A DNA stretch of 33,891 bases. It comes from Candidatus Nanoarchaeia archaeon. Its GTDB lineage: Archaea > Nanobdellota > Nanobdellia > Pacearchaeales > GW2011-AR1. Shown in pieces: positions 2,228-30,930 of this stretch. The stretch lies in the NCBI GenBank assembly GCA_035548435.1, contig DASZSY010000001.1:1-33891 (forward strand). Reading direction: 5' to 3'. The position numbers were made by a program, and so were the translations under genes. Each line of letters opens with the position of its first letter. Position 1 is the first letter of the stretch. Below the pieces are notes generated by a model, which had not been told where the DNA came from, did no database searches, and worked only from the letters and a program-made list of their open reading frames with translations.

Positions 2228-2767
2228 TTAGTTCTTTTTTTCGAAAACAACTTGGCCCTTACATGGCAACTTTGGTTTTATTGCGTTAAGTGCTTCACGA
2301 GCAACAGAAATTCCTTTCTCGTTAGCGCAGTATATCTCGAAAACTTCTTTTCCAGCAGGTACTATAGCGCTTCTTCCAATAACTACTCCAAATGCTTGAG
2401 TCATTCCTGTAGAAATTCTGTCCGCTCCAGCCATTCCTCCAGCAGATTTGTTTTCTCTAACTAGGTGGTGTGGGTAAATCTTAACAGCCATGTAATATTG
2501 TCCAGGAGCTCCAGTATCCATCATTTTTACAAGATACATTCTGCATGCTTCAATTGCGTTGTCTCTTATTTGAGTAGCTTCAGAAGTAACATATCTTACA
2601 ACAAATGGTAATTTTCCAGCGTTGAATAATGTTGCATCTCCACTTGTCATTTTTGCAATTTTAACGTGTGGAACTGTTTTGATGTAAGCCTTGTTCTTGT
2701 TCTTACTTGTTCTTGTGTAAGGTCTAACTCTTTTCTTTGAATATGATGATGCTTTTCTTATGGCCAT
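2228..2767 (-). CDS. rpl10e: 50S ribosomal protein L10e/uL16
   Basis: MAIRKASSYS..RPYTR, QIRDNAIEACR, KIYPHHLVRENK, GADRISTGMTQAFG, KPKLPC. Confidence 0.95.
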   Translation of the reverse strand: MAIRKASSYSKKRVRPYTRTSKNKNKAYIKTVPHVKIAKMTSGDATLFNAGKLPFVVRYVTSEATQIRDNAIEACRMYLVKMMDTGAPGQYYMAVKIYPHHLVRENKSAGGMAGADRISTGMTQAFGVVIGRSAIVPAGKEVFEIYCANEKGISVAREALNAIKPKLPCKGQVVFEKKN

Positions 2768-2768
2768 T

Positions 2769-3056
2769 TTACTTCTTTGCCTCTTTCTTTTGTGCCGCTA
2801 CTGCTCCCAGTGTAACGTTTGTAGTTATAGATTGTCCAGGTAATCCAGATTCAAATATTGCTCTAACAAGTCCCTTGTTTCCGTGTGCATCGGATATTTT
2901 TCCAGAGATAACTTTTCCTGAAGAAGATGTCCAAGAAACTGTTTGTCCAATTACTTTCTTTGCTTCGTCTCTGTTCATGAAACCAAGGTCTAACAAGTAA
3001 TGTTTCTCTTTTATTCTGTGTCTGCTTCTTCTAAACTGTACAATTATTCCGTTCAT
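2769..3056 (-). CDS. rpl35ae: 50S ribosomal protein L35Ae/eL33
   Basis: GII..FRRSRH, A...IG..V.WTSSSGKVISGKI...HGNKGLVRA.F..GLPGQ; 1 nt from rpl10e. Confidence 0.92.
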   Translation of the reverse strand: MNGIIVQFRRSRHRIKEKHYLLDLGFMNRDEAKKVIGQTVSWTSSSGKVISGKISDAHGNKGLVRAIFESGLPGQSITTNVTLGAVAAQKKEAKK

Positions 3057-7508: not shown

Positions 7509-8303
7509 TTAAATATCAATTGCGCCGTCTTTCTCTACGTAATCTGTCTTTCCAGTTTGTGTTTTAACTCTGTTTCTTCTTCTCCATGCAGCTGCTCCAG
7601 CGAATGCTAGTCCACCAGCAAGTAAACTCCAAGCACTTGGCTCTGGTACTGCTGTTATGTTGAAGTTTAGAGAGTTTGTGTTTCCAAGAAGTTGATAATT
7701 CCCGCCCGCAAACAAATCGGTTGTTGAAGGGCTATTTAATGTCCAGCTAGTTGCACCAGTGTCATAAGTAAAACTTACATTTCCACCTGCAGATCCAGTT
7801 CCAGGTGTAAAGTAAAAGCTAACAACATTTGCTTTCTCACCAAAGTCATCTAGTAGTGGAAGATTGCCTACTGCAGTTCTCTCATAAGAGAAAGTCATAG
7901 TATTTCCTAATGTTGATACAGGGCCATAGGTATTTGTTCTACCAGTTGAACTAGAAAATATATCGTTATTCAAAGGAGTTCCTTCATTGGAAGTAGATGT
8001 TGGATTAACATAGTTAAAATTAACTTCATTTACATCAAAGCCATTTGTAAATGTTGCTTTGAATGCAGATTTTATATCGTTAAAGTCTAATCCAGAATAA
8101 GTTTGGATATTCTCAATGTTTAAATTTATTAAATAAGTATGTCCCTCTTGAAGAGATCCGGAGACCGCCTGATTATTACTTGTGTCTACTACTTCAGCTC
8201 CAAGATTAACCAGAGCTTGTGCTCTCAAATCAGGAGTTCCTGAAAGACCTAGAGCTAATGCTGTTCCAGCCATTATCTTTCCTACTAATCCTTTGTATGC
8301 CAT
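7509..8303 (-). CDS. Secreted protein with PEP-CTERM sorting signal
   Basis: N-terminal signal peptide (MAYKGLVGKIMAGTALALGLSG) and C-terminal VPEPSAWSLLAGGLAFAGAAAWRRR. Confidence 0.85.
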   Translation of the reverse strand: MAYKGLVGKIMAGTALALGLSGTPDLRAQALVNLGAEVVDTSNNQAVSGSLQEGHTYLINLNIENIQTYSGLDFNDIKSAFKATFTNGFDVNEVNFNYVNPTSTSNEGTPLNNDIFSSSTGRTNTYGPVSTLGNTMTFSYERTAVGNLPLLDDFGEKANVVSFYFTPGTGSAGGNVSFTYDTGATSWTLNSPSTTDLFAGGNYQLLGNTNSLNFNITAVPEPSAWSLLAGGLAFAGAAAWRRRNRVKTQTGKTDYVEKDGAIDI

Positions 8304-8386
8304 AATTACTCTGCTCAAAGAGGGTTTATAAATATATATGTTTCGGAGTATATATTTACTATTCAAGAGTTACAACTATTCTATAG

Positions 8387-9469
8387 TTAGCCTTTGTATT
8401 TTCTTCTTATATCGTTAATTTCCGTAGCTGACAATGATCTGTTAAAGAACATAACTTCATCTATGTATCCGTTGAAACCAGGTCCAATATTGAAGTTTTG
8501 TGTTGTTGAAGGAACTGCAGTTATAGTAGGCGATGTGCTTACAGATTGATCATTAAGATATATTGTCATTAAAGTTGAATTGAAGACTGCAGCAATAAAT
8601 TCCCACTGATTTGAAGAAGGAGCACCGCTAATATTAATTTGGTTGGTTACTCCAGAGTTCTTCACAGCAAACTCCCAGTTACCAGTCGCTTGTGAATATC
8701 TTAAAACAAAACCTCCTCCCAAAGCCATTTTATCAACTACTTTACTTTGAGAAGCTAAGTTTAAGTTAATTGGATTAACCCATGCAACCAAGGTAATATT
8801 ATCGCTATTTAACTTTTGATTGTTAGGTACAGATGTATATGTACTAGTAGAAGTGCTGTATATCGCACTTTGACTTCCGAATTTTTTATTCGAGCTGAAA
8901 GTAGCCCCTCCATTAGAAGCACCATTGAATCCATTTTTTTCATCAATCCATGTACCTTCCATCTTCCAACATGATACTTGGCTGTTTTGCACAGCAGCCG
9001 GCAAAGTATACTTCGTCTTATTCTTCACTGGTTGTTGTATTGGAACTCCAAACGTTTCTTTGTCTGTTCCGTTTTGTCTAAAAATAGGAGTAACTGTGAT
9101 AAACAAAACATCATCAATTGTCGGGTCTGAATAATTAAAGTTAAATTTTTTAGCTTCGTATTCTGCAATTGTGAAATTCTGTCTGAATGTTTTAACATTT
9201 CCAGCAGGGTCGGTTAGTCCAACCATAAATCCTGCAATGTTTCCATCTCCTGCATCTCTTGCTAGATTAAGAGAGAAAGAGTCAGTGTTAGGGTCATATG
9301 AAACGCTGTCAGCTGCAACAGAAAGTTTTGTAGTATATGCCTGTGAATCAAGTCCCGAAGATTTTTCCAATAAAGGCAATAAAACGTTCCAAGCTATTAC
9401 AACAGCAGCCATTGCAATCAATATAACTAAAATTGTTGTGACAATATCAGAAAGTCCTCTTCTTGACAT
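8387..9469 (-). CDS. Archaeal type IV pilin-like protein with C-terminal LamG-like jellyroll
   Basis: Class III signal RRG/LSDIVTTILVILI; ITLVAWVNP, WEFIAAVF, FNGYIDEVMFFNRSLSATEI. Confidence 0.85.
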   Translation of the reverse strand: MSRRGLSDIVTTILVILIAMAAVVIAWNVLLPLLEKSSGLDSQAYTTKLSVAADSVSYDPNTDSFSLNLARDAGDGNIAGFMVGLTDPAGNVKTFRQNFTIAEYEAKKFNFNYSDPTIDDVLFITVTPIFRQNGTDKETFGVPIQQPVKNKTKYTLPAAVQNSQVSCWKMEGTWIDEKNGFNGASNGGATFSSNKKFGSQSAIYSTSTSTYTSVPNNQKLNSDNITLVAWVNPINLNLASQSKVVDKMALGGGFVLRYSQATGNWEFAVKNSGVTNQINISGAPSSNQWEFIAAVFNSTLMTIYLNDQSVSTSPTITAVPSTTQNFNIGPGFNGYIDEVMFFNRSLSATEINDIRRKYKG

Positions 9470-9472
9470 ATT

Positions 9473-9497
9473 TTATATTCGAAGAAAGAGAATATAA
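9473..9497. promoter_or_regulatory. Inverted repeat (9-7-9) over the promoter of pilin-LamG gene 1
   Basis: TTATATTCG-aagaaag-AGAATATAA (8/9), overlapping the minus-strand TATA. Confidence 0.5.
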
Positions 9498-9522
9498 AGG
9501 TTATCTTAAGGGGAGTTTATCT

Positions 9523-10593
9523 CTATCTGTACTTGTTACGTATTTTATCTATTTCAGTTGGAGTTAAAACTCTGTTGAAAAACATAACTTCATCAACATT
9601 TCCATCAAAACCAGAACCTATTCTTAGGGGGTTGGTAGGGAAAGTCATCTGAACAAGATTGTTAAAAGAATTTGAACTTGAGTTATAATATATTATAGAT
9701 TTGTCAGAAGAGTAGCTTGCAGCAATAAATTCCCAAGTGTTAAGGTTTTTAGTTGCAGGAATTGAAACTGTATTTTGATTGCCTGTTGTTTTAGTTATAA
9801 GTTGCCATGTTGCTGTAGCTCCATCATAACCTAAAGTAAATCCTGTCGAAGTATCTGACCTATCAACTATCTTACTAAATCCGTTTGTAGGCAAGCTTCT
9901 AGGATTAACCCATGCAACTATTGTAAATAAGTTTGTAGTGAATGCTGCATCGTTTACAGCTTCATAATAATCTGATGTAGTTCCCCCCAATCTTGTAGAT
10001 CCAGCCCCAACTTTCTTTAGGTTTGAATCATATACTACATTTCCATTAGGAGTGCAATTAAGGCCACTGACATAATCTATGCAAAGTGAGTCATCAAATT
10101 TCCAGTGAGCTATAATACTTGAAGGAAATTGGTATGGAGTTTTATTTGCAATTGGCTGTTCTATAGGTATTCCGTATAAGTCTGTAGTTGTTCCATTTTG
10201 TCTAAATATCGGAGTTATTGTTATAAAATACACATCATAAATTAAAGGGTCTGTAAAATTAAGTTGAACTTTTCTTGCTTCATATTCTCCAAGACTAAAG
10301 TTTTGTCTGAATGTTTTAACATTTCCTTCCTGGTCAGTAAGTCCCACCATAAATCCAACCAAATCTCCTTCTCCTGCATCTCTTGCCACATTAAGAGAAA
10401 CAGAGTCAGTGTTAGGATCATATGCAACGCTATCTGCTCTAACTGAAAGCTTTGTGGTATATGCCTGTGAATCAAGCACCGATGCTTTTTGTACAAGAGG
10501 CAAAACATATTTCCATATTATTGCCACAGCAGCCATAACCACGAGTATTATCAAAATTGCCACAACCACATCAGAAAGTCCCCTCTTTGACAT
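9523..10593 (-). CDS. Archaeal type IV pilin-like protein with C-terminal LamG-like jellyroll (paralogue)
   Basis: KRG/LSDVVVAILII; HWKFDD, FTIVAWVNP, FDGNVDEVMFFNRVLTPTEI. Confidence 0.85.
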   Translation of the reverse strand: MSKRGLSDVVVAILIILVVMAAVAIIWKYVLPLVQKASVLDSQAYTTKLSVRADSVAYDPNTDSVSLNVARDAGEGDLVGFMVGLTDQEGNVKTFRQNFSLGEYEARKVQLNFTDPLIYDVYFITITPIFRQNGTTTDLYGIPIEQPIANKTPYQFPSSIIAHWKFDDSLCIDYVSGLNCTPNGNVVYDSNLKKVGAGSTRLGGTTSDYYEAVNDAAFTTNLFTIVAWVNPRSLPTNGFSKIVDRSDTSTGFTLGYDGATATWQLITKTTGNQNTVSIPATKNLNTWEFIAASYSSDKSIIYYNSSSNSFNNLVQMTFPTNPLRIGSGFDGNVDEVMFFNRVLTPTEIDKIRNKYR

Positions 10594-16616: not shown

Positions 16617-16660
16617 GCCACCTTAAACATTTAAAAACCCGTTTTAGCTCTGATTTACAA

Positions 16661-16697
16661 GGCCTCATAGTCTAGTGGCAAAACGACTCGTTTACAC
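16661..16697 (+). pseudogene. 5' half of host tRNA-Val(TAC) = attL
   Basis: GGCCTCATAGTCTAGTGGCAAAACGACTCGTTTACAC, identical to 29916-29952; TATA TTTAAAAA at 16630-16637. Confidence 0.93.
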
Positions 16698-16764: not shown

Positions 16765-18000
16765 ATGTATAAAGAGAGATATATAAAACGTAAACAAGCA
16801 CTATTATCAGACCTAAGTATTAATCCTATTAATCTTGAAGTAATCAACAAGTTTCTAACCTTTGAAGAGTATAAGCTAAAGAGAAAGCAAGGATTAACAG
16901 AGGTAGATGAAAGGTCTTACAAAACTCTGTATGGATATTCTGGCAGACTTAGAACCCTGAATCGTTGGTTTAACAATAAGCCTTGGGCTGAACTAACTAT
17001 TGAGGACATCAAGAAGCTTATAGATGATTTAGAAGATGGAAAAATTATTAATCAATATGGTAAAAGATACATGGACCGAAGTTTATACTACCAAATGCTT
17101 CAGGGGAAATTGTTTAGTTTAGTTGGGAAAAGTCACATTGCAAGAGAGATAATTGAGGAGTTCTCTATAAGAGGCAGAGAGTTTGGGAATGAGGTAAGAT
17201 ACATTGATGAAGAATCATTTAGAAAGATTGTTGATTGTGCTATAACTCCAGAACAGAAATGTTTGTTATGGTTGGCTTTTGATGTTGGAGAAAATATTAA
17301 TTCTTTGTTAGCAATTACAAAGGCAGATATAAGAAAACAAATTAATACAACCACCAATGAACCAGAATATCTTGTTATTCTTAGTAAAGACATACTGAAA
17401 AGAAGCAGAACACCAAGAAGCGAACTAACTAATTACAAAGAGACAGCAAGATACTTAGATATTGTTTTAGCAAATCTAAAACCAGCGCACAAAAGAACAG
17501 CTAACAAGTTTATGTCCAGCACCCATCTTTCACAGGTCCATGAAGATGATAAATTATTCAAGTTTGCTTTCAAATCAGCAGAAAAGTTTCTAAAGAGAGC
17601 AGTAGAACTGGCAGGAATAAGATGTTTACCAGCAGGACAAAGAGTAACTTGGAAAGACTTGAGAAGTAGTATGGCTTGTGATTTATTAAAGAAAGGATGG
17701 AGTAGAGACGAAGTTAATGCTAGGTTAGGACATCGTCCTTCTTCCAGAATAATTGATAGATACATCAATTATTTAGCCTTAGATAAAACAAAACCAAAGA
17801 AAATAGTCTATGAAGGAAACATACATAAATTAGAAATTGAATTGGAAAGACATAAAGAAATGAATAAGCTTTCAGCTTTAAGATTTGAGTCACTAAAGAG
17901 AGAGCAAGACCAACTCAAAGAATCATTTAGACTATTCATGGCTAATGCAAAAGTGGAGCTTAAGGGAATTGTTCAAGAGGTGGATGAATTATATCTCTAA
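16765..18000 (+). CDS. Tyrosine integrase (atypical active site)
   Basis: Adjacent to attL; WKDLRSSMACDLL..GWSRDEVNARLGHRPSSRIIDRY; box I reads DVGENINSLL. Confidence 0.85.
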   Translation: MYKERYIKRKQALLSDLSINPINLEVINKFLTFEEYKLKRKQGLTEVDERSYKTLYGYSGRLRTLNRWFNNKPWAELTIEDIKKLIDDLEDGKIINQYGKRYMDRSLYYQMLQGKLFSLVGKSHIAREIIEEFSIRGREFGNEVRYIDEESFRKIVDCAITPEQKCLLWLAFDVGENINSLLAITKADIRKQINTTTNEPEYLVILSKDILKRSRTPRSELTNYKETARYLDIVLANLKPAHKRTANKFMSSTHLSQVHEDDKLFKFAFKSAEKFLKRAVELAGIRCLPAGQRVTWKDLRSSMACDLLKKGWSRDEVNARLGHRPSSRIIDRYINYLALDKTKPKKIVYEGNIHKLEIELERHKEMNKLSALRFESLKREQDQLKESFRLFMANAKVELKGIVQEVDELYL

Positions 18001-18743: not shown

Positions 18744-18908
18744 ATGGTCTTTCCAACCAACAACAGAATATCCTCTTTTCTCTAGGAGTTCTTGAATCTC
18801 AGTTGCACACTTTATAGACTTATATTCTGCTAACTCTCTTTTTGTTTTGCTTAACTTCGAAAACGGAATTGCAGAAGACTTAACACTTATTTTAATTGAA
18901 TACGTCAT
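18708..18908 (-). CDS. Small hypothetical protein
   Basis: 66-aa ORF overlapping the end of the Xer-like gene. Confidence 0.4.
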   Translation of the reverse strand: MTYSIKISVKSSAIPFSKLSKTKRELAEYKSIKCATEIQELLEKRGYSVVGWKDHSRGSTIRFRQN

Positions 18909-19461
18909 TTACAGTCTTCTTTTTGTTTTCTACTCCCATATGTTTGTATATTCCAGTTGATGCTAATGATTTATGTCTTAGAAGTTCTTGGACTTTTCCT
19001 AGGTCTCCTGTCTTATCCCAAATAATAGTTCCATATGAATGTCTAAATGTGTGTGGATGAACATTCTTTTTTATTTCAGCTTTCTTCGCATAGTATTTGA
19101 CAATCTGCCACACTCTTTGTTTTGTTAAAGGAATAATATGTTCATCATCTTGTTTATAGTTACACCATTCTTCTAAGAACTTGAATAATGAAGTAGGAAT
19201 TGGTTGGTCTGCTTCCATTCTGGTTTTTGTTATCTCTGCTCTGATTCTGATTGTCTTGGCTTTGAAATTAATATCTTTCTTTTTTATGTTGATGGCTTCA
19301 TTAACTCTCATTCCAGTATAATAAAGAAACTTTAGAATCATCTCATCTCTTGGAGATTCTACGAGGCTAAACATTTTATTTACTTCTTCTTCAGTCAAGT
19401 GTTCTTGTAATTTTCTTTCTTTCACTTTTCCTTTCTTTCTAGTGTGCTGTTGTTCTTCCAT
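18892..19461 (-). CDS. Small Xer-like tyrosine recombinase (catalytic domain only)
   Basis: LYYTGMRVNEA, ITKTR, HPHTFRHSYGT, LLRHKSLASTGIY: full R-K-H-R-H-Y set in 189 aa. Confidence 0.92.
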   Translation of the reverse strand: MEEQQHTRKKGKVKERKLQEHLTEEEVNKMFSLVESPRDEMILKFLYYTGMRVNEAINIKKKDINFKAKTIRIRAEITKTRMEADQPIPTSLFKFLEEWCNYKQDDEHIIPLTKQRVWQIVKYYAKKAEIKKNVHPHTFRHSYGTIIWDKTGDLGKVQELLRHKSLASTGIYKHMGVENKKKTVNDVFN

Positions 19462-21763: not shown

Positions 21764-24301
21764 ATGGACCACAAGGACTACTTGAGCCGACATGTGGGAA
21801 AACGTTTCAAAAGAGGAGCTACAAAAGAAAACATTGGTTCTACTAAGTGGGAATTGGATTATCAAGATTCCAAATACTCTGAAGACATCAATCAGATTGA
21901 GATAGCTGATAATGAAATTGTTATAGAGTTTGATGAAACAGCCAAAGACGGAAGTGATAAGGTATCAACAATCGCAGAGAGAACAAATTGGATATATCAC
22001 ACAATGAATATGCTGGATACTTTCAACATAAAGTATTATGTATTTGACCACAAAGGAAAATGTCAGCATATTCATATCTTTTCTGAAAGAGACTTAACAC
22101 AGGGCGAAAAAGAAAGAGTGGCCAAATCTTTTGTAAAAGCTGAAGCCGAACCATTCCTTGACACAAGTCTGTTCACTAATGCTCATTTAATCAATGTTCC
22201 ATTTTCAAAACATTGGAGAACAGGAGAAATGAAGAAGTTATTACATGAATATGGAGAGCATCCAATTAGAGACAAAGATATTCCTCCAAAAATTACTTCT
22301 GATAGCGATATGACAACGATTTCTGTCTCTACTGGGCTTACAAAGAAAATAGTTTCAGCAATAAAAATCACAGATATTGCAAAAGAACATGGATTAAAAC
22401 AATCTACAACACAGAAGAATCAATTTCTGTGTCCTTTTCATAAGGATAAAAACCCATCATTAGACTTAAATGATGAAAAAGGATTTTTTCATTGCTTTGG
22501 ATGTCAAGCTAGTGGAAACATAATTGACCTTGTTTCAAGATTGGATAAGATAACACCAGAAGAAGCAAAAGAAAAGTTGATGGGTAAGGCTAAGTTGCTC
22601 GAAATAAGACCAAAAGTTCAATTACCTCAGAGCAAACTAATATCTGATTTCGCAAAAGAGATTCTACCTTTTTTGAGAGACGGAAACGAATTGTTTTACA
22701 ACACCCAAGTTAAATCAATAGTTCAGATAAGAAATAAAGAATTTCATATAGTTACTGCTGGTGAATTTATTACTATTGTCGAGAACTATATTACTCCTGT
22801 TATTCATGAAAAAAAGAAAGTGAAGGTTATGGAGAATGATGTTCTCGTAGAGAAAGACGCAATAATAGAGAAAAGAAAATCTATGACTCGTGAACTATCA
22901 AGCACTTTATTACAAAGTGATATCTTGATGAACGGATTAAGACCAATAAAGCAGATATTTACAATCCCTATTCCAATTTGGTTCAATGGAGAACTTACTT
23001 TTGTAAAGAAAGGATATGATGAAAGATTCTCTTCATGGCTTTCTGAAGATTCACCAGATATATCAAATCCAAATATGAGTTTGAAAGAAGCAAAAGAAAT
23101 AATCAATTATATCTATAAAGAATTTGCATTTAAAACACAACAAGATTTGATTAATGCTATTGCAGGATTACTTACACCATACACAAGAGGGCTTATGAGT
23201 AGCTTTTCTGTAAGAACTCCGTTTTGGTTTTATATGGGGAACAGAGAACGTGTTGGAAAAGACTATTGTGCAGATATCACTGGAATAGTCTATGAAGGGT
23301 ATGCAATTCAAGAGACGCCAATAAGCACGGGGGAAAGCAACAGCAATTCAGAGGAATTAAGAAAAAAAATTGTATCGGCGCTACTTTCAGGCAGAAAAAG
23401 ATTACACTTTGCAAATAATAAGGGATATCTCAATAATGCCGCTCTTGAAATGGTATTGACAGCTCCAAAAGTTTCAGATAGACTACTTGGAAAGAACGTT
23501 GAAGTTGCGTTAGATAACCTTATAGATTACTCTGCTTCTGGAAATGTTGGAATTGGATTCACTCCCGACTTAATGAATAGGAGTTTGTTTGTTAATCTCT
23601 TTTTAGACATTGAAAATGCAAATGCAAGAAATTTTGAAAATCCCAACTTACACGGATGGGTTTTAGAAAACAGAAACAAGGTATTGAGTGCATTATATGC
23701 CTTTATTAGGAATTGGATTGAAAAAGACAGACCGAATGGTAGCGTTCCTTTTGCGAGTTATCCAGAATGGGCAAAGATTGTTGGTGGAATCATGGAAACT
23801 GCTGAATACGAAAATCCATGTAAGGTTCATGAACAGGTTCTGGCAATTGGTGGAGATATCGAAACAGGAGATATGAAAGAATTATTTGAACGATGCTATA
23901 ATGAACATCCAAACATCTGGATTGACAAAAATGACATTAAGAATGTAATTATAAATGCCCAAATGAACGAAGGCAGTTCAATGTTTAGTAATATTGATTT
24001 CGCAAATAGAGCTGACCAAGTGAAATTTGGAAGCAAAATAGTAAGGTTTCAAGGAAGAATTTTGTCTGATATACGTTTAGATAGTGATGGAAACACAAGA
24101 ACAGCACGACAAAAATATAAATTTGAAAAAATAACAAACAAAAATGGTAATCTTGGTAATCTTGGTAATCTAAACCCTTGTGGACAATTAAATGATAAAC
24201 AAAACAATATAATATATAGTAATAGCCAAAAGATTGCCAAAGATTACCAGATTACCAATCCTCTTTCTTTGGAATCATTTAATGGAAACGGAGGATATTA
24301 G
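21764..24301 (+). CDS. Replication protein: AEP-like primase + CHC2 zinc finger + degenerate P-loop helicase-like domain
   Basis: IVIEFDE and DHKGKCQHIHIF (AEP-like motifs I/II); CPFHKDKNPSL...FHCFGCQASGNIIDLV (CHC2); GNRERVGKD and LHFANN (Walker A/B-like). Confidence 0.75.
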   Translation: MDHKDYLSRHVGKRFKRGATKENIGSTKWELDYQDSKYSEDINQIEIADNEIVIEFDETAKDGSDKVSTIAERTNWIYHTMNMLDTFNIKYYVFDHKGKCQHIHIFSERDLTQGEKERVAKSFVKAEAEPFLDTSLFTNAHLINVPFSKHWRTGEMKKLLHEYGEHPIRDKDIPPKITSDSDMTTISVSTGLTKKIVSAIKITDIAKEHGLKQSTTQKNQFLCPFHKDKNPSLDLNDEKGFFHCFGCQASGNIIDLVSRLDKITPEEAKEKLMGKAKLLEIRPKVQLPQSKLISDFAKEILPFLRDGNELFYNTQVKSIVQIRNKEFHIVTAGEFITIVENYITPVIHEKKKVKVMENDVLVEKDAIIEKRKSMTRELSSTLLQSDILMNGLRPIKQIFTIPIPIWFNGELTFVKKGYDERFSSWLSEDSPDISNPNMSLKEAKEIINYIYKEFAFKTQQDLINAIAGLLTPYTRGLMSSFSVRTPFWFYMGNRERVGKDYCADITGIVYEGYAIQETPISTGESNSNSEELRKKIVSALLSGRKRLHFANNKGYLNNAALEMVLTAPKVSDRLLGKNVEVALDNLIDYSASGNVGIGFTPDLMNRSLFVNLFLDIENANARNFENPNLHGWVLENRNKVLSALYAFIRNWIEKDRPNGSVPFASYPEWAKIVGGIMETAEYENPCKVHEQVLAIGGDIETGDMKELFERCYNEHPNIWIDKNDIKNVIINAQMNEGSSMFSNIDFANRADQVKFGSKIVRFQGRILSDIRLDSDGNTRTARQKYKFEKITNKNGNLGNLGNLNPCGQLNDKQNNIIYSNSQKIAKDYQITNPLSLESFNGNGGY
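24145..24257. repeat. Iteron-like origin: 3 direct TGGTAATCT, AT-rich spacer, 3 inverted copies
   Basis: TGGTAATCT x3 at 24145-24171; AGATTGCCA at 24231, AGATTACCA at 24241 and 24249. Confidence 0.75.
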
Positions 24302-24327: not shown

Positions 24328-24558
24328 ATGAAGAGATACGTTAGAAGATTTGAAGCATTGAGAGATTTTCTTAGAAACTATAATCCTAGAATTCCTCTAA
24401 CTAGACTTTGTCAAAGACTAAGAACGAATTATCCAGACCTTCAACTTTACTTGAAAATTGCTCGAGCTAAAGGCCTGATAGATGAAACCGGCGTGACTAC
24501 AAAGGGCCATGAATTCATAAGATGTGCAAATTTTGTTTATGAAGCTCTCACCCAGTAA
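24328..24558 (+). CDS. Small winged-helix protein
   Basis: PLTRLCQRLRTNYPDLQLYLKIARAKGLIDETGVTTKGHEF. Confidence 0.55.
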   Translation: MKRYVRRFEALRDFLRNYNPRIPLTRLCQRLRTNYPDLQLYLKIARAKGLIDETGVTTKGHEFIRCANFVYEALTQ

Positions 24559-24622
24559 AACTTGGTGACAGAAACTTTGATTTTTGGTCAAAATATATAA
24601 AGAAGAGTTTGGCTTATTTAAT

Positions 24623-25597
24623 ATGTCTATAACAAAACACAAACAGATTCTTCTTGTGTGTAACTATTGCGGACACAAGCAGTATGTTGAAAAAGAACCT
24701 AAGAAATGCCCTCGTTGTCATAACAAATATGGAAATGAACCAGTTTATAAAAAAGTAAAAAAGGAAGTTGGTAATTTTATTGGAAGAAATAAAAATTTCA
24801 TTATGTTCTTTCTTGGAATATTTTTGTTTATGTCAATTGCCTATGCAACCACTATAAGTGATACGACTTCAACTTTTAATGGTAACGTTAATTATGATAG
24901 CAATCTCACTTTAAGCTCAAGCACAATATCTTTAACAAATCCATATGCTACAAACGCTTTGTTCATTGACCAAAATGCAAATGGTGGAACATCTACATCT
25001 ACTGGTGGTGCTTTAAGATTGGACATGACTGGTAGCGATGGTGCTGGTCTTCTTATTTATTCAAATAATGGAGCTAGTGCTTCTGGTAGGTTGCTAAATA
25101 TTAGAGCTGATAATTCTTCTTTCAATCAAGCCGCATTTCATATAGATTATGACGGAACAGCTAACGCCGCAGAAGTTTCTTATGTAAACAACGATAGTTC
25201 AGGTCAAGCTCTAAATGTTGTTAGTTACAATGAATTAGATAGCCCACTTGGAGTAAACGGACAGACAACTGGAAAAGGAGTTGTAAAAATAGTTCATCTT
25301 CAACCATCAAGTTCTGATGCTAATGCCGCCGCAATTTCAATAGATTTGCAGGGAGCAACTACAGCTTCAAAAGGAATATTCATTGATACTACAACAGGAA
25401 ATACTACTGGGCACTTGCTGGATTTAAGAAACGGAGGTAGCCAAAGATTCGTTGTAACAAGTGAAGGTGTAATGCAGTTATTAGCGAATAGAACTGCTAT
25501 AACTTGCGGAACATCACAAGCTGGTTATATCTATTATGATGGAACTCTCTCAAAACACTACGGATGCAATGGCACAACATGGAATGCTCTATACTAA
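24623..25597 (+). CDS. Zn-ribbon + signal anchor + phage hyaluronate-lyase (HylP/Hyaluronidase_1)-like beta-helix protein
   Basis: STGGALRLDMTGSDGAGLLIYSN, FNQAAFHIDYDGTANA, GKGVVKIVH, DANAAAISID, KGIFIDTTTGNTTGHLLDLRN parallel the HylP1 sequence as I recall it; CNYC..CPRC and a hydrophobic segment at the N-terminus. Confidence 0.8.
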   Translation: MSITKHKQILLVCNYCGHKQYVEKEPKKCPRCHNKYGNEPVYKKVKKEVGNFIGRNKNFIMFFLGIFLFMSIAYATTISDTTSTFNGNVNYDSNLTLSSSTISLTNPYATNALFIDQNANGGTSTSTGGALRLDMTGSDGAGLLIYSNNGASASGRLLNIRADNSSFNQAAFHIDYDGTANAAEVSYVNNDSSGQALNVVSYNELDSPLGVNGQTTGKGVVKIVHLQPSSSDANAAAISIDLQGATTASKGIFIDTTTGNTTGHLLDLRNGGSQRFVVTSEGVMQLLANRTAITCGTSQAGYIYYDGTLSKHYGCNGTTWNALY

Positions 25598-26534
25598 AGA
25601 TAAAAAACGTAAGAGCATTTGGAAAATATTATTAATAATTATAGCACTTAGTATTTTCCTTTTTTTGATATCTAACGCATTTGCTCTGTCTATTGAAAAT
25701 CAAACAAGAACTTACTCATCTTTGACAAACTCAACTATTAGATTTGAACAGAATACTACTCTCGCTCAACTTGAAGTAACCAATAATAGAACGAATATAC
25801 ATAATCTAACCACAAATGGTTCTATCTTTAGTAACATTAACGCAAGTTATCCAGCATACATTAGCTTCTATGGCCTAAATTCGTCTTCTACTTATTATTC
25901 AAACAATACTAAGTGTGGATTTACATCTAAGACTGATAATAGTGGAAATATGAACTGCACAATTGGTGTTGGTCAATATGTTATCTTTTACAACTCAACA
26001 ACGCCACCAAATGCAACAATAATTTCACCAAACGGAATTGTCACAAATCAAAATATTAATATTCAATTACATACTGAAAGTTCAGCGTCTTATTGCATGA
26101 TTAATATCTCGCGAGGTTCAGTAATTGATTTCTCGAATGTCTTAGTTCCTAGTTGTGATAGTGTTAGTCTTACTTTGCCACAGGACGGCACTTACGCTAT
26201 TAATTTATTGGTCAATGATTCAGTCGGAGATGCTCAATATATAAGCCAAAACTTTACTTTGCAAATGTTAGTTATTCCATCAACTCAAAGTGGTGGTGGC
26301 TCATCATCAAGTTCGTCTACTAGTTCAACTTTACAAACTTTTATGGTGAATAGACAAAACGGATGGGAATTTATGACTGATAAGAATTTGAAATATTATC
26401 AAATAGATGGGTTGTCTAATAAGAAAGTTGAGAAAGAGCTGTTAATAACTCATCTTGATAATGAGACAAAGCAAATCACTCTTTCGTGTGATGGGTTTAT
26501 GTGTGAGAATGTCAATTTCAAACAAAAAAGTTGA
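25584..26534 (+). CDS. Secreted, heavily N-glycosylation-prone surface protein (N-terminal part of a probable frameshifted gene)
   Basis: Signal peptide ending NAFA; 16 N-x-S/T sequons counted; GGGSSSSS linker. Confidence 0.75.
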   Translation: MLYTKDKKRKSIWKILLIIIALSIFLFLISNAFALSIENQTRTYSSLTNSTIRFEQNTTLAQLEVTNNRTNIHNLTTNGSIFSNINASYPAYISFYGLNSSSTYYSNNTKCGFTSKTDNSGNMNCTIGVGQYVIFYNSTTPPNATIISPNGIVTNQNINIQLHTESSASYCMINISRGSVIDFSNVLVPSCDSVSLTLPQDGTYAINLLVNDSVGDAQYISQNFTLQMLVIPSTQSGGGSSSSSSTSSTLQTFMVNRQNGWEFMTDKNLKYYQIDGLSNKKVEKELLITHLDNETKQITLSCDGFMCENVNFKQKS

Positions 26535-26893
26535 CACTTAATTCAACTCAAAATAGTATTAGAACAGCATTTGAAATAAAATTAACAGGTATTTCTGAAG
26601 ATAGTCAAGAATTTACAATATATGCTACTGACCAATTTGGAATAAAAAAGCAAATTTTGGTTACTATTGAAGCTGATGGAATTATAAATAAAGGTGTTTC
26701 TTCAATTACGAAGCTTGTAAAATTCGGAGAGTTCTCTGGCTTAAAAATTCCTTATATTATCATCTTTTTCTTAGTATTTTTTGGGATTTTCAATTTAATG
26801 AATTATATTGCTCTAAGAAAGTATCAATATAAAGAAATTGTATCTGTGGTGATTGGAATAATTGCAGGATTTGGTGTTTTACTATATCTATAA
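26531..26893 (+). CDS. Membrane-anchor part (two C-terminal TM helices) of the probable frameshifted surface protein
   Basis: Only a TTG start overlapping the previous stop after an A6 run; continues the beta-rich pattern, then 2 TM segments. Confidence 0.6.
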   Translation: MTLNSTQNSIRTAFEIKLTGISEDSQEFTIYATDQFGIKKQILVTIEADGIINKGVSSITKLVKFGEFSGLKIPYIIIFFLVFFGIFNLMNYIALRKYQYKEIVSVVIGIIAGFGVLLYL

Positions 26894-27767: not shown

Positions 27768-28733
27768 ATGAACATGAAAGGCCAAACTTTACAAGACCTA
27801 CATAAACTACTCGCGTCTTCTATTAGAATACCCCATTCATTCCTTAGAAGAGCAAGAGGTTTCATCAGTGAGTTGAAATTCAAAGAAAAATGTGTGAGTG
27901 ATAAAATCAGATACTTGGATGGTGGCTGGATGTTCTTTAAGGGAGGAAGACTAGCTGAACAAAAACAAGCAGTTTATACAACCACTACGTTTGATAATCC
28001 TGATAAATATGCTGAATTTTACGAAAAGCTATCTGTTTGTCCACTTATCAAAAAAATGTTTTTCTTTAAGATTAACCCTCGAAAACAATGGAAATCTATA
28101 AAGATAAAGGCGAATAATCATGACGAACTTTCTTTACCCGAACCTAGCTTTGAGGTATATGAATTTGTGCAAAATAAGTTTGTTAAATCTAATATAACAA
28201 GCTTTTTGGAATTCTTTCCTACAATAAAACCTGCGTTGTTTTATAGAATTGATACCAAAGATGCAAGTCTACTTGATTATCTTAATGAATTTTCTGACAC
28301 TGCTTTGGATGAACTATATTGCACAAGGTTTATTGTAGACTATTTGATGAAAGGCAGAGATTTGAGTTATGGCATGGACTTTGACGGAATTATAGTTGAA
28401 AAAGGAAAGTATTATGTCGTTGAAACAAAGGAGAAAGACCCAGGGCCAACTTTGAAGGATAAATTACCTAAATCTGAATGGTTCTTTGGTTGGGATACTC
28501 TAAGAATGCTATGGTATCTTTATTTAATCAAAACAACTGACATTAATTGTTATAGTGCAATTCTTGAAATAAATAATCAGAAAGAAAGAAAACCCGTGGC
28601 TTGGAAAAGATGTGAACTAATGGAGCTTTGTCGCTCAATTAATTATAGTTCTGCTATTACTGGTGGTGTTGGAATGGGTCCATCAGCTGGGTCAACAACC
28701 ATTGCACCATATTTAGTCTTTAAAGAATTTTAA
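27768..28733 (+). CDS. Putative PD-(D/E)xK restriction endonuclease
   Basis: DFDGIIVEKGKYYVVETKEK motif; overlaps the C5-MTase stop. Confidence 0.65.
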   Translation: MNMKGQTLQDLHKLLASSIRIPHSFLRRARGFISELKFKEKCVSDKIRYLDGGWMFFKGGRLAEQKQAVYTTTTFDNPDKYAEFYEKLSVCPLIKKMFFFKINPRKQWKSIKIKANNHDELSLPEPSFEVYEFVQNKFVKSNITSFLEFFPTIKPALFYRIDTKDASLLDYLNEFSDTALDELYCTRFIVDYLMKGRDLSYGMDFDGIIVEKGKYYVVETKEKDPGPTLKDKLPKSEWFFGWDTLRMLWYLYLIKTTDINCYSAILEINNQKERKPVAWKRCELMELCRSINYSSAITGGVGMGPSAGSTTIAPYLVFKEF

Positions 28734-29692
28734 AGATTCTTTTTAATTTCTTCTGCAACGGCTTTAGCAAGAAGACATGGAACTGCGTTTCCTATCTGCA
28801 TATAAATCTCTTTTTTTGAGCCAACCCATTTATAATCGATTGGAAATGTTTGAATTGCCGCTGCTTCTTCTGGAGTAAGCATTCTAACTTCGTCTTCTGC
28901 ATATTTCACAAGAGCATCAGCACCATCCTTCCAATATCTTGCAGATATGGTATACGAAGGCTCATTTAGTTTCAGGTATTGTGCACCAAATCCTTTTCCG
29001 TTTTCTGCGTTAATTTTCTTTCTACGATTGAATCCATCAATCATTTTTGGAGTATGAAAGAATTTTTTATCAACTTTATCTTTTGGAATCAAAACAGATG
29101 ACACTGGGACATAACTATTAGTGTGGGTCGGTTCTGGAAACTTTATTTGCTTATTTGTTTTTGTTCCTATAAATACTACTCTTTTTCTTTTTTGAGGAAC
29201 ACCATACTCTGCAGCATGAAGCTTTCTATACTCCACTTCATATCCAATTTTCTTGAACTCTGCTAAAATTATTTTGTGAACAAGTTCACCATTTGCAGTT
29301 TTCATTGTTAATATGCCTGGAACATTTTCCATAACAAAGAATTTAGGCTTTAGACCATTTACAATTCTGACAAATTCCATGAATAAAGAATTTCTTGGGT
29401 CTTTCGTATCTCTTCTACCAGCCATACTAAATCCTTGACAAGGTGGTCCTCCCGCGACTATATCTACTTCTTTATTACCAATTGCTTCTTTTATTTCGTC
29501 TACACTAACTTTTGTAATATCTTTGCAAATAGATTTATGGTCGTTTTTTTCAAATGTTTGACAAAATACAGGTATATGGTCTACTCCAAGAAGAACATCA
29601 AACCCAGCCATTTTGAAACCAGTGCTAAGCCCTCCAGCACCACAAAATAAGTCGACTACCGTTGGTTTTCTTTCTTGTTTCACCTTATTCAC
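28730..29692 (-). CDS. DNA (cytosine-5)-methyltransferase
   Basis: DLFCGAGG, GGPPCQGFS, MENVPG, QKRKRV, QIGNAVP. Confidence 0.96.
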   Translation of the reverse strand: MNKVKQERKPTVVDLFCGAGGLSTGFKMAGFDVLLGVDHIPVFCQTFEKNDHKSICKDITKVSVDEIKEAIGNKEVDIVAGGPPCQGFSMAGRRDTKDPRNSLFMEFVRIVNGLKPKFFVMENVPGILTMKTANGELVHKIILAEFKKIGYEVEYRKLHAAEYGVPQKRKRVVFIGTKTNKQIKFPEPTHTNSYVPVSSVLIPKDKVDKKFFHTPKMIDGFNRRKKINAENGKGFGAQYLKLNEPSYTISARYWKDGADALVKYAEDEVRMLTPEEAAAIQTFPIDYKWVGSKKEIYMQIGNAVPCLLAKAVAEEIKKNL

Positions 29693-29915
29693 CAGTTTTT
29701 ATTATAATTTGTATTCATTTATGTTATATAAACTTAGATATTGTATAATCTATAGTTATTCCGTCAATTGACAGCAATAAAATGCACATGTTAAACATCA
29801 TTGGTAGTCGTAAAATAGCTCATTTGCGACAGCAATAAAGGCTTATTTTGAGGCATTTTTAGGTAACTTTTGACAAGAACAAGGTTTAAAACATATTATT
29901 TGTTAAGAAAAACAA

Positions 29916-29986
29916 GGCCTCATAGTCTAGTGGCAAAACGACTCGTTTACACCGAGTAGTCGGGAGTTCGATTCTCTCTGGGGCCA
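29916..29986 (+). tRNA. tRNA-Val(TAC), intact, inside the element
   Basis: Cloverleaf: GGCCTCA/TGGGGCC acceptor, ACTCG-TTTACAC-CGAGT anticodon arm, GGGAG-TTCGATT-CTCTC T arm; TATA TTTAAAAC at 29885-29892. Confidence 0.95.
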
Positions 29987-29990
29987 TCTC

Positions 29991-30773
29991 ATGAGTTATA
30001 TTATGTACGTGGACGAGTGTTATGAGAAAAGTTCTAATTGTTCAATTATGGCAGGTTTCATAATTCCTTTGACAAAGTGGAGTGTTCTTAACAAAGAGAT
30101 AAAAGACTTGAAGGAAAAATATTTCAAGAATGAATATATGAATCTTAAAGATATTAGAAGAAATAAGTATGATGAGAATCAGTATTGGAACTCTCTAACT
30201 TCAGAACAGAAAGAAGAATTCAATAAAGAATTTTATGAAATCATATCAAGAAAGGATTATACAATACTAGCAGGAATTATCAATAAAGAGGGTATGGAAG
30301 ACAAGTCCAAAGAGTTACAATTTTACCTTTCTTACAGCTTTATTTTGCAAAGGTTTGAGTATTTTTTAGATGAAAATGACTCTCAAGGTATTATTATAAT
30401 GGATAGTGCAGAGGCTAGTAAAGAAATTAATGAATTATATGATAAACATAAGAGGTTTCTGAGAGAAGGTGTGCCAACTAAAAGAAAAGACTTAACGTTG
30501 AAAGTAGGCGGTAATGAATTTAGTTTCAAAGATTACGAAAGGAGAAAAATAACCAGAGTGTGTGAAAATCTACTATTTCTGAATGATGACGATACTAATA
30601 TGCTACAAATAGTGGATATGATTTCTTCTGCCATGTTTGCTAAATTTAATCGTAAAATTGATGTTTGGTTTAACAAGATAAAGTCAAATATAAGAGCAAG
30701 AAAGAGTGATGGTTTGATGTTAGGTTATGGTTTAAAGTTCTTCCCAGAGCTTCCTAAAGACATTAGTATCTAG
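29991..30773 (+). CDS. DUF3800-like (RNase H-fold) protein
   Basis: N-terminal MYVDEC, IIIMD, C-terminal LQIVDMIS match the D-E...D...QxxD pattern. Confidence 0.7.
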   Translation: MSYIMYVDECYEKSSNCSIMAGFIIPLTKWSVLNKEIKDLKEKYFKNEYMNLKDIRRNKYDENQYWNSLTSEQKEEFNKEFYEIISRKDYTILAGIINKEGMEDKSKELQFYLSYSFILQRFEYFLDENDSQGIIIMDSAEASKEINELYDKHKRFLREGVPTKRKDLTLKVGGNEFSFKDYERRKITRVCENLLFLNDDDTNMLQIVDMISSAMFAKFNRKIDVWFNKIKSNIRARKSDGLMLGYGLKFFPELPKDISI

Positions 30774-30857
30774 TTTATGCTCTATGATGTAGGATTCAAG
30801 CCAAAACACATGGTTTAAATAAGACTATCGCTAAAAGTAACTTAAAGGATAGAATCG

Positions 30858-30898
30858 TTTACACCGAGTAGTCGGGAGTTCGATTCTCTCTGGGGCCA
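30858..30898 (+). pseudogene. 3' half of host tRNA-Val(TAC) = attR
   Basis: 30855-30899 is identical to 29943-29987 (45 bp); followed by a T-rich terminator-like tract. Confidence 0.93.
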
Positions 30899-30930
30899 TT
30901 CTTTTTATATTCCAAAAAGCTAATTAACTG

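Follow-up and report, generated by a model that had tools for sequence, protein, structure and literature searches.

The window analyzed here comprises positions 1–33,891 (33,891 nucleotides, nt) of contig DASZSY010000001.1 of the Candidatus Nanoarchaeia archaeon assembly GCA_035548435.1. Within it, a 13.2-kb element integrated at a tRNA gene carries a gene for a 324-amino-acid (aa) protein which, judged by its sequence and predicted fold, is a true member of PF07212 (Hyaluronidase_1), the family that includes the prophage hyaluronate lyase HylP1. The protein is very probably an extracellular trimeric fiber, and the explanation that we favor, with less assurance than the fiber itself but still as the probable one, is that this homotrimeric fiber belongs to the element and binds a surface glycan, perhaps also cleaving it. 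Its architecture differs from that of a phage-tail hyaluronidase, and labeling it as an enzyme is not yet warranted. The features of the gene and protein are as follows.

24623–25597, forward strand: gene for the HylP-like fiber protein, 324 aa with the stop codon included in the coordinates, from the list of open reading frames (ORFs) and the family matches.
24590–24602, forward strand: A/T-rich TATA-like box, aaaatatataaag, centered about 27 nt 5' of the ATG and read by eye.
24659–24718, forward strand: zinc ribbon CxxC-x12-CxxC (C13, C16, C29, and C32) within the basic N-terminus.
24797–24847, forward strand: hydrophobic segment, aa 59–75, ending AYA/TTISDT, at the hydropathy maximum and within helix 57–74 of the model.
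25004–25477, forward strand: HylP/PF07212 triple-stranded beta-helix domain, aa 128–285, by Pfam, PDB, model, and Foldseek.
25478–25594, forward strand: 39-aa C-terminal module containing two Cys, N-x-T...C...YYD...KHYGCN-x-T-W-NALY, conserved in the metagenomic relatives P0002, P0035, P0029, and P0030.

A preliminary description of this DNA had recognized a HylP-like triple beta-helix of about 160 aa and had named a profile or structure match as one way to check it. Significant matches were obtained at every level, from Pfam, PHROGs, the HylP chains of the PDB, and Foldseek. The PF07212 profile, which has a curated cut-off of 27 bits, scored 107.3 bits (E = 9.7e-31) and aligned aa 128–285 with its positions 2–160 of 161, while PHROG 2332, annotated as 'hyaluronidase', matched with an E value of 3.8e-30. 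Searches of the PDB with phmmer retrieved HylP1, the tail fiber of a Streptococcus pyogenes SF370 prophage (2c3f, PL16; E = 5e-28), HylP2 (2dp5, 3eka, and 2yvv; about 4e-28), the HylP of phage H4489A (6wv2 and 6x3m; about 1e-25), and Hyal_Sk of Streptomyces (4ufq; 1.9e-14). An AlphaFold2 monomer model built from 33 sequences had predicted local distance difference test (pLDDT) values of 85–90 across aa 130–290 and hardly any secondary structure within the chain, which is what a single strand of an intertwined helix should show. When this model was compared with the PDB using Foldseek, the top 22 matches were all HylP-family chains, with E values down to 5e-10 over ~205 aligned columns and template modeling scores of 0.5–0.6 (0.46–0.51 when normalized by query length).

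The likeness to HylP1 ends with the beta-helix. This part of HylP1 aligns end to end with the archaeal protein (69 of 170 positions aligned by hmmalign are identical), and the remainder of HylP1 is without a match in it; the PDB and Pfam alignments together are confined to aa 97–292. A tail fiber of the HylP1 type consists of an N-terminal cap, a coiled coil, and a C-terminal helical bundle in addition to the beta-helix (PMC11669647). None of these three parts was found in the archaeal protein by the PDB and Pfam alignments, and their places are taken by a zinc ribbon, a hydrophobic segment, a Ser/Thr-rich stalk, and a two-Cys knob. The carriers differ as well, HylP1 being encoded by a tailed phage whose bacterial host has a hyaluronan capsule and the present protein by an integrated element of an archaeon. 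Hyal_Sk of Streptomyces koganeiensis (PDB 4UFQ), which aligns to aa 165–291, resembles it in being a stand-alone, signal-exported protein that is not part of a phage tail. Unlike it, Hyal_Sk is encoded by a bacterial chromosome, has a different C-terminus, and is without both a zinc ribbon and the Asp/Tyr segment discussed below. Of the 50,697 deposited phage genomes, that of Streptomyces phage LuckySocke (OR725497.1) gave the closest match: its gp84 tailspike is 47.9% identical over aa 119–286, but this is a tailed bacteriophage with a 114-kb genome, and the tailspike has the beta-helix domain alone in common with the archaeal protein. Only metagenomic proteins came closer in layout. P0035 (279 aa) and P0002 (267 aa, from a contig of 1.4 kb) have the same architecture throughout the ectodomain, with 45–47% identity over ~83% of the archaeal protein, although each begins with an ordinary short signal peptide and has no zinc ribbon.

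The start of the gene bears on how the N-terminus is interpreted. The mechanical ORF list begins the forward-strand frame ending at 25597 with a TTG at 24584, whereas the preliminary description began it with the ATG at 24623. As the TTG lies upstream of the TATA-like box, the ATG is the likelier start, and the box itself suggests a leaderless archaeal transcript. A later start that would yield a plain signal peptide was rejected, there being no ATG, GTG, or TTG codon between M1 and M61. Residues 1–57 are basic (isoelectric point, pI, 9.7; 14 Lys plus Arg). The four ribbon cysteines lie in this region, which several zinc-ribbon models of Pfam matched weakly (E values of 0.13–0.9) and which the AlphaFold model renders with strands at 9–13 and 19–22 (pLDDT ~75); among the 175 closest family representatives, the ribbon is confined to this protein. 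With the hydrophobic segment that follows, it forms the non-phage N-terminus that the preliminary description had reported. Residues 59–75 may serve as a signal anchor, or they may be a signal peptide that is cleaved off. Cleavage is suggested by P0002, P0029, P0030, and P0035, because in these four relatives the same junction, A-x-A and then TTTI(S/T)D, stands behind ordinary short signal peptides. The ectodomain beyond the segment is acidic (pI 4.66), and by the positive-inside rule the N-terminus would thus be cytoplasmic and the HylP-like part outside.

At the other end of the chain, the C-terminal module is probably a distal knob. It was modeled with three short strands (pLDDT of 71–82), and a profile search with the 50-aa knob found three short fragments only. 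The ectodomain contains six N-x-S/T sequons, which confirms that the N-glycosylation sequons mentioned in the preliminary description are present; since 5.7 are expected from composition, they are not enriched, and their number is not meaningful. Enrichment was rejected for this protein on these figures. The two sequons of the C-terminal module (N289 and N316) are invariant across P0002, P0035, P0029, and P0030.

Taken in order along the chain, these parts can be fitted to the following scheme. The protein would insert in the membrane with its basic zinc-ribbon N-terminus remaining in the cytoplasm, while the hydrophobic segment would carry the rest of the chain across, to be kept as an anchor or cut at AYA/TT. 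Outside, a Ser/Thr-rich stalk would precede the HylP/PL16-type triple-stranded beta-helix shaft, which would form as three chains intertwine, and a glycosylated and probably disulfide-bonded two-Cys knob would stand at the tip. The fiber would be displayed on the membrane of the carrier cell, or on that of vesicles or particles which the element produces, where it would recognize a surface glycan and possibly cleave it by beta-elimination, as in HylP. Its ligand is unlikely to be hyaluronan.

Whether the shaft could also act as a lyase was considered through the residues proposed to be catalytic in HylP proteins. Positions were mapped in two alignments (phmmer and hmmalign), with an offset applied for the 21 extra N-terminal residues of the 2c3f chain, and two of them are given here by codon.

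25022–25024, forward strand: codon of D134, equivalent to HylP1 Asp137, by phmmer alignment, hmmalign, and codon check.
25058–25060, forward strand: codon of Y146, equivalent to HylP1 Tyr149, by phmmer alignment, hmmalign, and codon check.

The equivalence of this pair to Asp137 and Tyr149, and the presence of Arg (R132) at the position of HylP1 Asn135, had both been read correctly in the preliminary description. Its further statement that the HylP1 pair is catalytic holds in part. Asp137 and Tyr149 of HylP1 were proposed as catalytic residues by Smith et al. (2005), cited in PMC11669647, but the assignment is unsettled: Tyr264 has been proposed as catalytic in HylP2, PL16 is without a published substrate complex, and its true catalytic residues need further work (PMC11669647). 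HylP2 and HylP3 are also said to be without the Asp137/Tyr149 dyad (PMC11669647). The HylP2 chains 3eka, 2yvv, and 2dp5 carry the same NIDLSSTRGAGVVVYS segment as HylP1, however, so that this statement fits truncated SF370 constructs only.

Several observations weigh against a fiber of the element that acts on its glycan. The Asp137 column is variable across the family (D 60, E 36, N 33, and T 23). HylP2 Tyr264, the proposed proton donor, is replaced by Phe253; of 183 sequences, 126 have Phe in this column and 49 have Tyr. Thr takes the place of a Glu that is 86% conserved in the family (HylP1 E219), and Lys that of Gln261, which is 89% conserved. Mature Hyal_Sk, which corresponds to residues 31–247 of a Streptomyces sp. 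ORF (L020, 9836–10579), begins after the Asp/Tyr segment, and it is reported to be an active hyaluronan lyase (PMC11669647); the pair therefore cannot be the common catalytic machinery of the family. The domain of the archaeal protein is acidic, with a pI of 4.7 (8 K+R and 14 D+E), compared with 9.1 for that of HylP1 (18 K+R and 15 D+E), the family median being 5.0. Finally, P0029 and P0030 have N-terminal signal regions and C-terminal modules of the same kind as the archaeal protein around a middle part without a PF07212 match, and such non-HylP shafts in the same frame suggest that the shaft is an exchangeable scaffold.

These observations would suit a purely structural fiber or adhesin, in which the HylP-type beta-helix serves as a rigid trimeric shaft presenting the knob and has no lyase activity. 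The exchange of shafts between the same flanking modules, the substitutions at the E219, Gln261, and Tyr264 positions, the absence of the Glu from five of the nine members of the nearest subfamily, the variability at Asp137, and the acidic surface all point in this direction, and this alternative is assigned a likelihood not far short of even. It has to accommodate the retention of the Asp/Tyr pair, the first position being acidic (Asp or Glu) in all nine nearest subfamily members and the Tyr149 column holding Tyr in 87% of the 172 family domains that were aligned. The protein also keeps six further polar residues that are strongly conserved in the family (K222, H225, D232, N203, R269, and N270, by hmmalign), and every characterized member of the family is a lyase (PMC11669647). 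The Asp/Tyr pair is, on these comparisons, weak evidence of catalysis, and an active lyase is possible but somewhat doubtful. As for the substrate, the preliminary description had suggested a glycan containing uronic acid, such as methanochondroitin. On net charge, the sole charge measure taken, a positive substrate groove like that expected for hyaluronan was not apparent, and the contrast between the acidic domain and basic HylP1 argues against a polyanionic uronic-acid substrate, be it hyaluronan or methanochondroitin; the suggestion is thereby weakened. All characterized PL16 enzymes are specific for hyaluronan (PMC11669647), and hyaluronan is very unlikely to be the substrate here.

The archaeal origin of the contig is apparent from the genes for ribosomal proteins L35Ae and L10e at 2228–3056. 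The best named matches of its cysteinyl-tRNA synthetase are in metagenome-assembled genomes of Nanoarchaeota and Woesearchaeota (59–64% identity), with one Patescibacteria and one Micavibrio label also among them, and the host is read from these genes as a DPANN-type archaeon. The element itself is defined by direct repeats derived from a tRNA gene with an integrase beside one end, the arrangement of a tRNA-integrating element of the tyrosine-recombinase type, and the HylP-like gene lies inside the 13.2 kb between the 41-bp repeats. The preliminary description had placed the gene in an archaeal mobile element, and the ribosomal protein genes, repeats, and integrases agree with this. The remaining features of the element are listed from left to right.

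16657–16697, forward strand: attL, an exact 41-bp copy of the sequence from 4 nt upstream of tRNA-Val through the anticodon loop, from a repeat search.
16765–18000, forward strand: tyrosine recombinase/integrase adjoining attL (Phage_integrase, 1.1e-6; PHROG 1, 1.3e-10).
18892–19461, reverse strand: second, short tyrosine recombinase of 189 aa, catalytic domain only (Pfam, 2.2e-32).
21764–24301, forward strand: replication protein of the primase-helicase type, 845 aa, with a CHC2 zinc finger and a C-terminal part that matches phage primase/helicase families.
24328–24558, forward strand: 76-aa winged-helix protein directly 5' of the HylP-like gene (wHTH-PRTase_assc, 5e-4, below the cut-off).
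25536–26893, forward strand: two co-oriented membrane protein ORFs downstream, one of 332 aa, glycoprotein-like and rich in sequons, the other of 120 aa with C-terminal transmembrane segments.
27768–29692, convergent pair at the right end: a 321-aa ORF and a C5 cytosine methyltransferase (DNA_methylase, 4.8e-74).
29912–29952, forward strand: attR, the same 41 bp inside the intact tRNA-Val (29916–29986), from a repeat search.

Assembly error was considered as a source of the association between this fold and an archaeon, that is, the joining of a bacterial or phage HylP-like fragment to an archaeal contig. The known distribution of the fold would be consistent with such an error: the 73 of 50,697 deposited phage genomes that matched all infect Streptococcus (71) or Streptomyces (2), and a motif-based scan of the GTDB species representatives, which requires two exact motifs, misses even Streptococcus, and so is no census, returned 17 loci, all of them bacterial. 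The contig itself speaks otherwise. The two ends of the element carry the same 41 bp, duplicated without a mismatch from the tRNA-Val of this contig, archaeal or housekeeping genes flank it on both sides, GC content is uniform at 30–36% throughout the window, and a TATA box of archaeal type precedes the gene. An artifact of this kind is thus considered extremely improbable.

Less readily decided is whom the fiber serves. It could be a cell-surface or secreted cargo protein acting for the carrier archaeon, through which an episymbiotic DPANN cell attaches to or feeds on the glycan coat of a partner, or it could be displayed on a particle made by the element. Among the ORFs of the element, searches of Pfam, PHROGs, NCBIfam, and the PDB revealed neither a capsid or terminase gene nor any other hallmark of a virion, which also counts against a fiber belonging to an element-made particle; it is weak negative evidence, because archaeal virion proteins are often unrecognizable. 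The gene set, with its integrases, primase-helicase, and putative restriction-modification genes, resembles a cryptic integrated plasmid, and this together with the missing virion genes favors cargo. Signal-like N-terminal segments, which tail fibers do not need, occur in 54 of the 175 nearest family representatives; Hyal_Sk is a cellular enzyme that is secreted; the host appears to be DPANN-like; and one relative, P0007, occurs in a cellular-looking context beside a UDP-sugar dehydrogenase gene. Pulling toward a particle are the neighboring genes and the contigs on which the nearest domain relatives occur. The HylP-like gene is accompanied by four others for small membrane proteins or glycoproteins, to which no function was assigned; these make up a block of five with it and could encode envelope proteins, while the closest domain relatives (50–62% identity) are proteins of 1283–1759 aa on contigs of tailed-virus character, one with a terminase and a major head protein (L031), another with a terminase beside the domain match (L033), and a third with a primase and a methylase (L034). 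On this evidence the service of the carrier cell is credible but rated a little below an even chance. The most specific form of the particle proposal, a membrane-anchored PL16-type depolymerase spike, the first in Archaea, which would sit on enveloped particles or vesicles and cut a uronic-acid surface glycan to reach the cell surface, is unlikely. The favored explanation, a glycan-binding fiber of the element, leaves room for display on either membrane.

The HylP-type fold is a common module of environmental proteins and is widespread in metagenomes. A full HMMER scan over 1.84 billion cluster representatives (clusters at 50% identity) found 666 clusters with E values of 1e-3 or lower, of which 340 reached 1e-10 or lower; their lengths are 150–4018 aa. 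Relatives of the element were sought in other ways. Genome contigs scanned with an alignment of the close subfamily yielded no relative, nor did viral contigs scanned with the whole protein, the downstream glycoprotein, or the integrase, and the primase matched viral contigs through its generic CHC2 finger only. A tblastn comparison of all ORFs in the window with 44 loci revealed no synteny, the HylP domain alone being held in common. The literature searched contained no paper linking DPANN archaea with a hyaluronidase.

The gene for P0007 (44% identical, with a plain signal peptide; L001, 4002–6294) is immediately 5' of one for a UDP-glucose/GDP-mannose dehydrogenase, which takes part in making uronic-acid sugars; as a single locus, this is a hint only. 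In P0008 (L023, 4593–5612), a HylP-type domain is fused to the C-terminal domain of a K1 capsule lyase (PF24146, 2.8e-13). Its contig of 14.6 kb has nearly all genes in one direction, and a precomputed hit of a neighboring gene to PF27228 (MTBMA_p00010_2nd) was not reproduced in the Pfam search.

Characterized HylP/PL16 enzymes come from streptococcal phages and one Streptomyces only (PMC11669647). Within the searches made, the combination of zinc ribbon, anchor, shaft, and knob is a new architecture for this known fold, and Archaea are a new host domain for it; a HylP fold on an integrated element of DPANN type, with an apparent membrane anchor in place of the tail adaptor, makes a clean case. 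Should the protein prove active, the lyase family would extend into Archaea and would help to explain how glycan coats are crossed by DPANN elements or cells. Should it prove inactive, a 'catalytic' beta-helix would have been reused as a shaft, and this would matter for annotation because most of the at least 666 clusters would be automatically labeled 'hyaluronidase'.

The other genes of the element add detail to this picture. The short recombinase could be the remnant of a nested element or have a resolvase-like function, and small ORFs without matches are also present. The 332-aa protein downstream of the fiber gene has 16 sequons, where 8.3 are expected (P = 0.002), along with a poly-Ser linker and a hydrophobic segment at its N-terminus. 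Neither this ORF nor the 120-aa ORF had a match in family-profile (Pfam and PHROG) or PDB searches. The 120-aa ORF begins on the stop codon of the 332-aa ORF in another frame, and the pair might represent a single spike-like gene that is split or frameshifted. The 321-aa ORF is without a family match, but a D...E-x-K-like motif (DFDGIIVEKGKYYVVETKEKD) can be read from its sequence; it is a probable nuclease on that reading, and with the convergent methyltransferase it is probably a type II restriction-modification cargo. The remaining ORFs of the element gave nothing useful in searches of Pfam, PHROGs, NCBIfam, and the PDB.

Two regions of the window outside the element also deserve mention. 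The 3' part of tRNA-Val recurs as a 48-nt copy (47 of 48 identical) at 30852–30899, delimiting a tiny second insertion at 29940–30899 that encloses a DUF3800 gene (29991–30773) only. This copy of the 3' side, together with the 41-bp repeat of the 5' side, indicates that both halves of one tRNA gene have served as attachment sites. On the reverse strand at 7509–10593, two paralogous Laminin_G_3 (concanavalin-like) proteins adjoin a protein whose sorting signal resembles PEP-CTERM, with a Pfam E value of 3.1e-6 and scores below the cut-offs for several PEP-CTERM models of NCBIfam.

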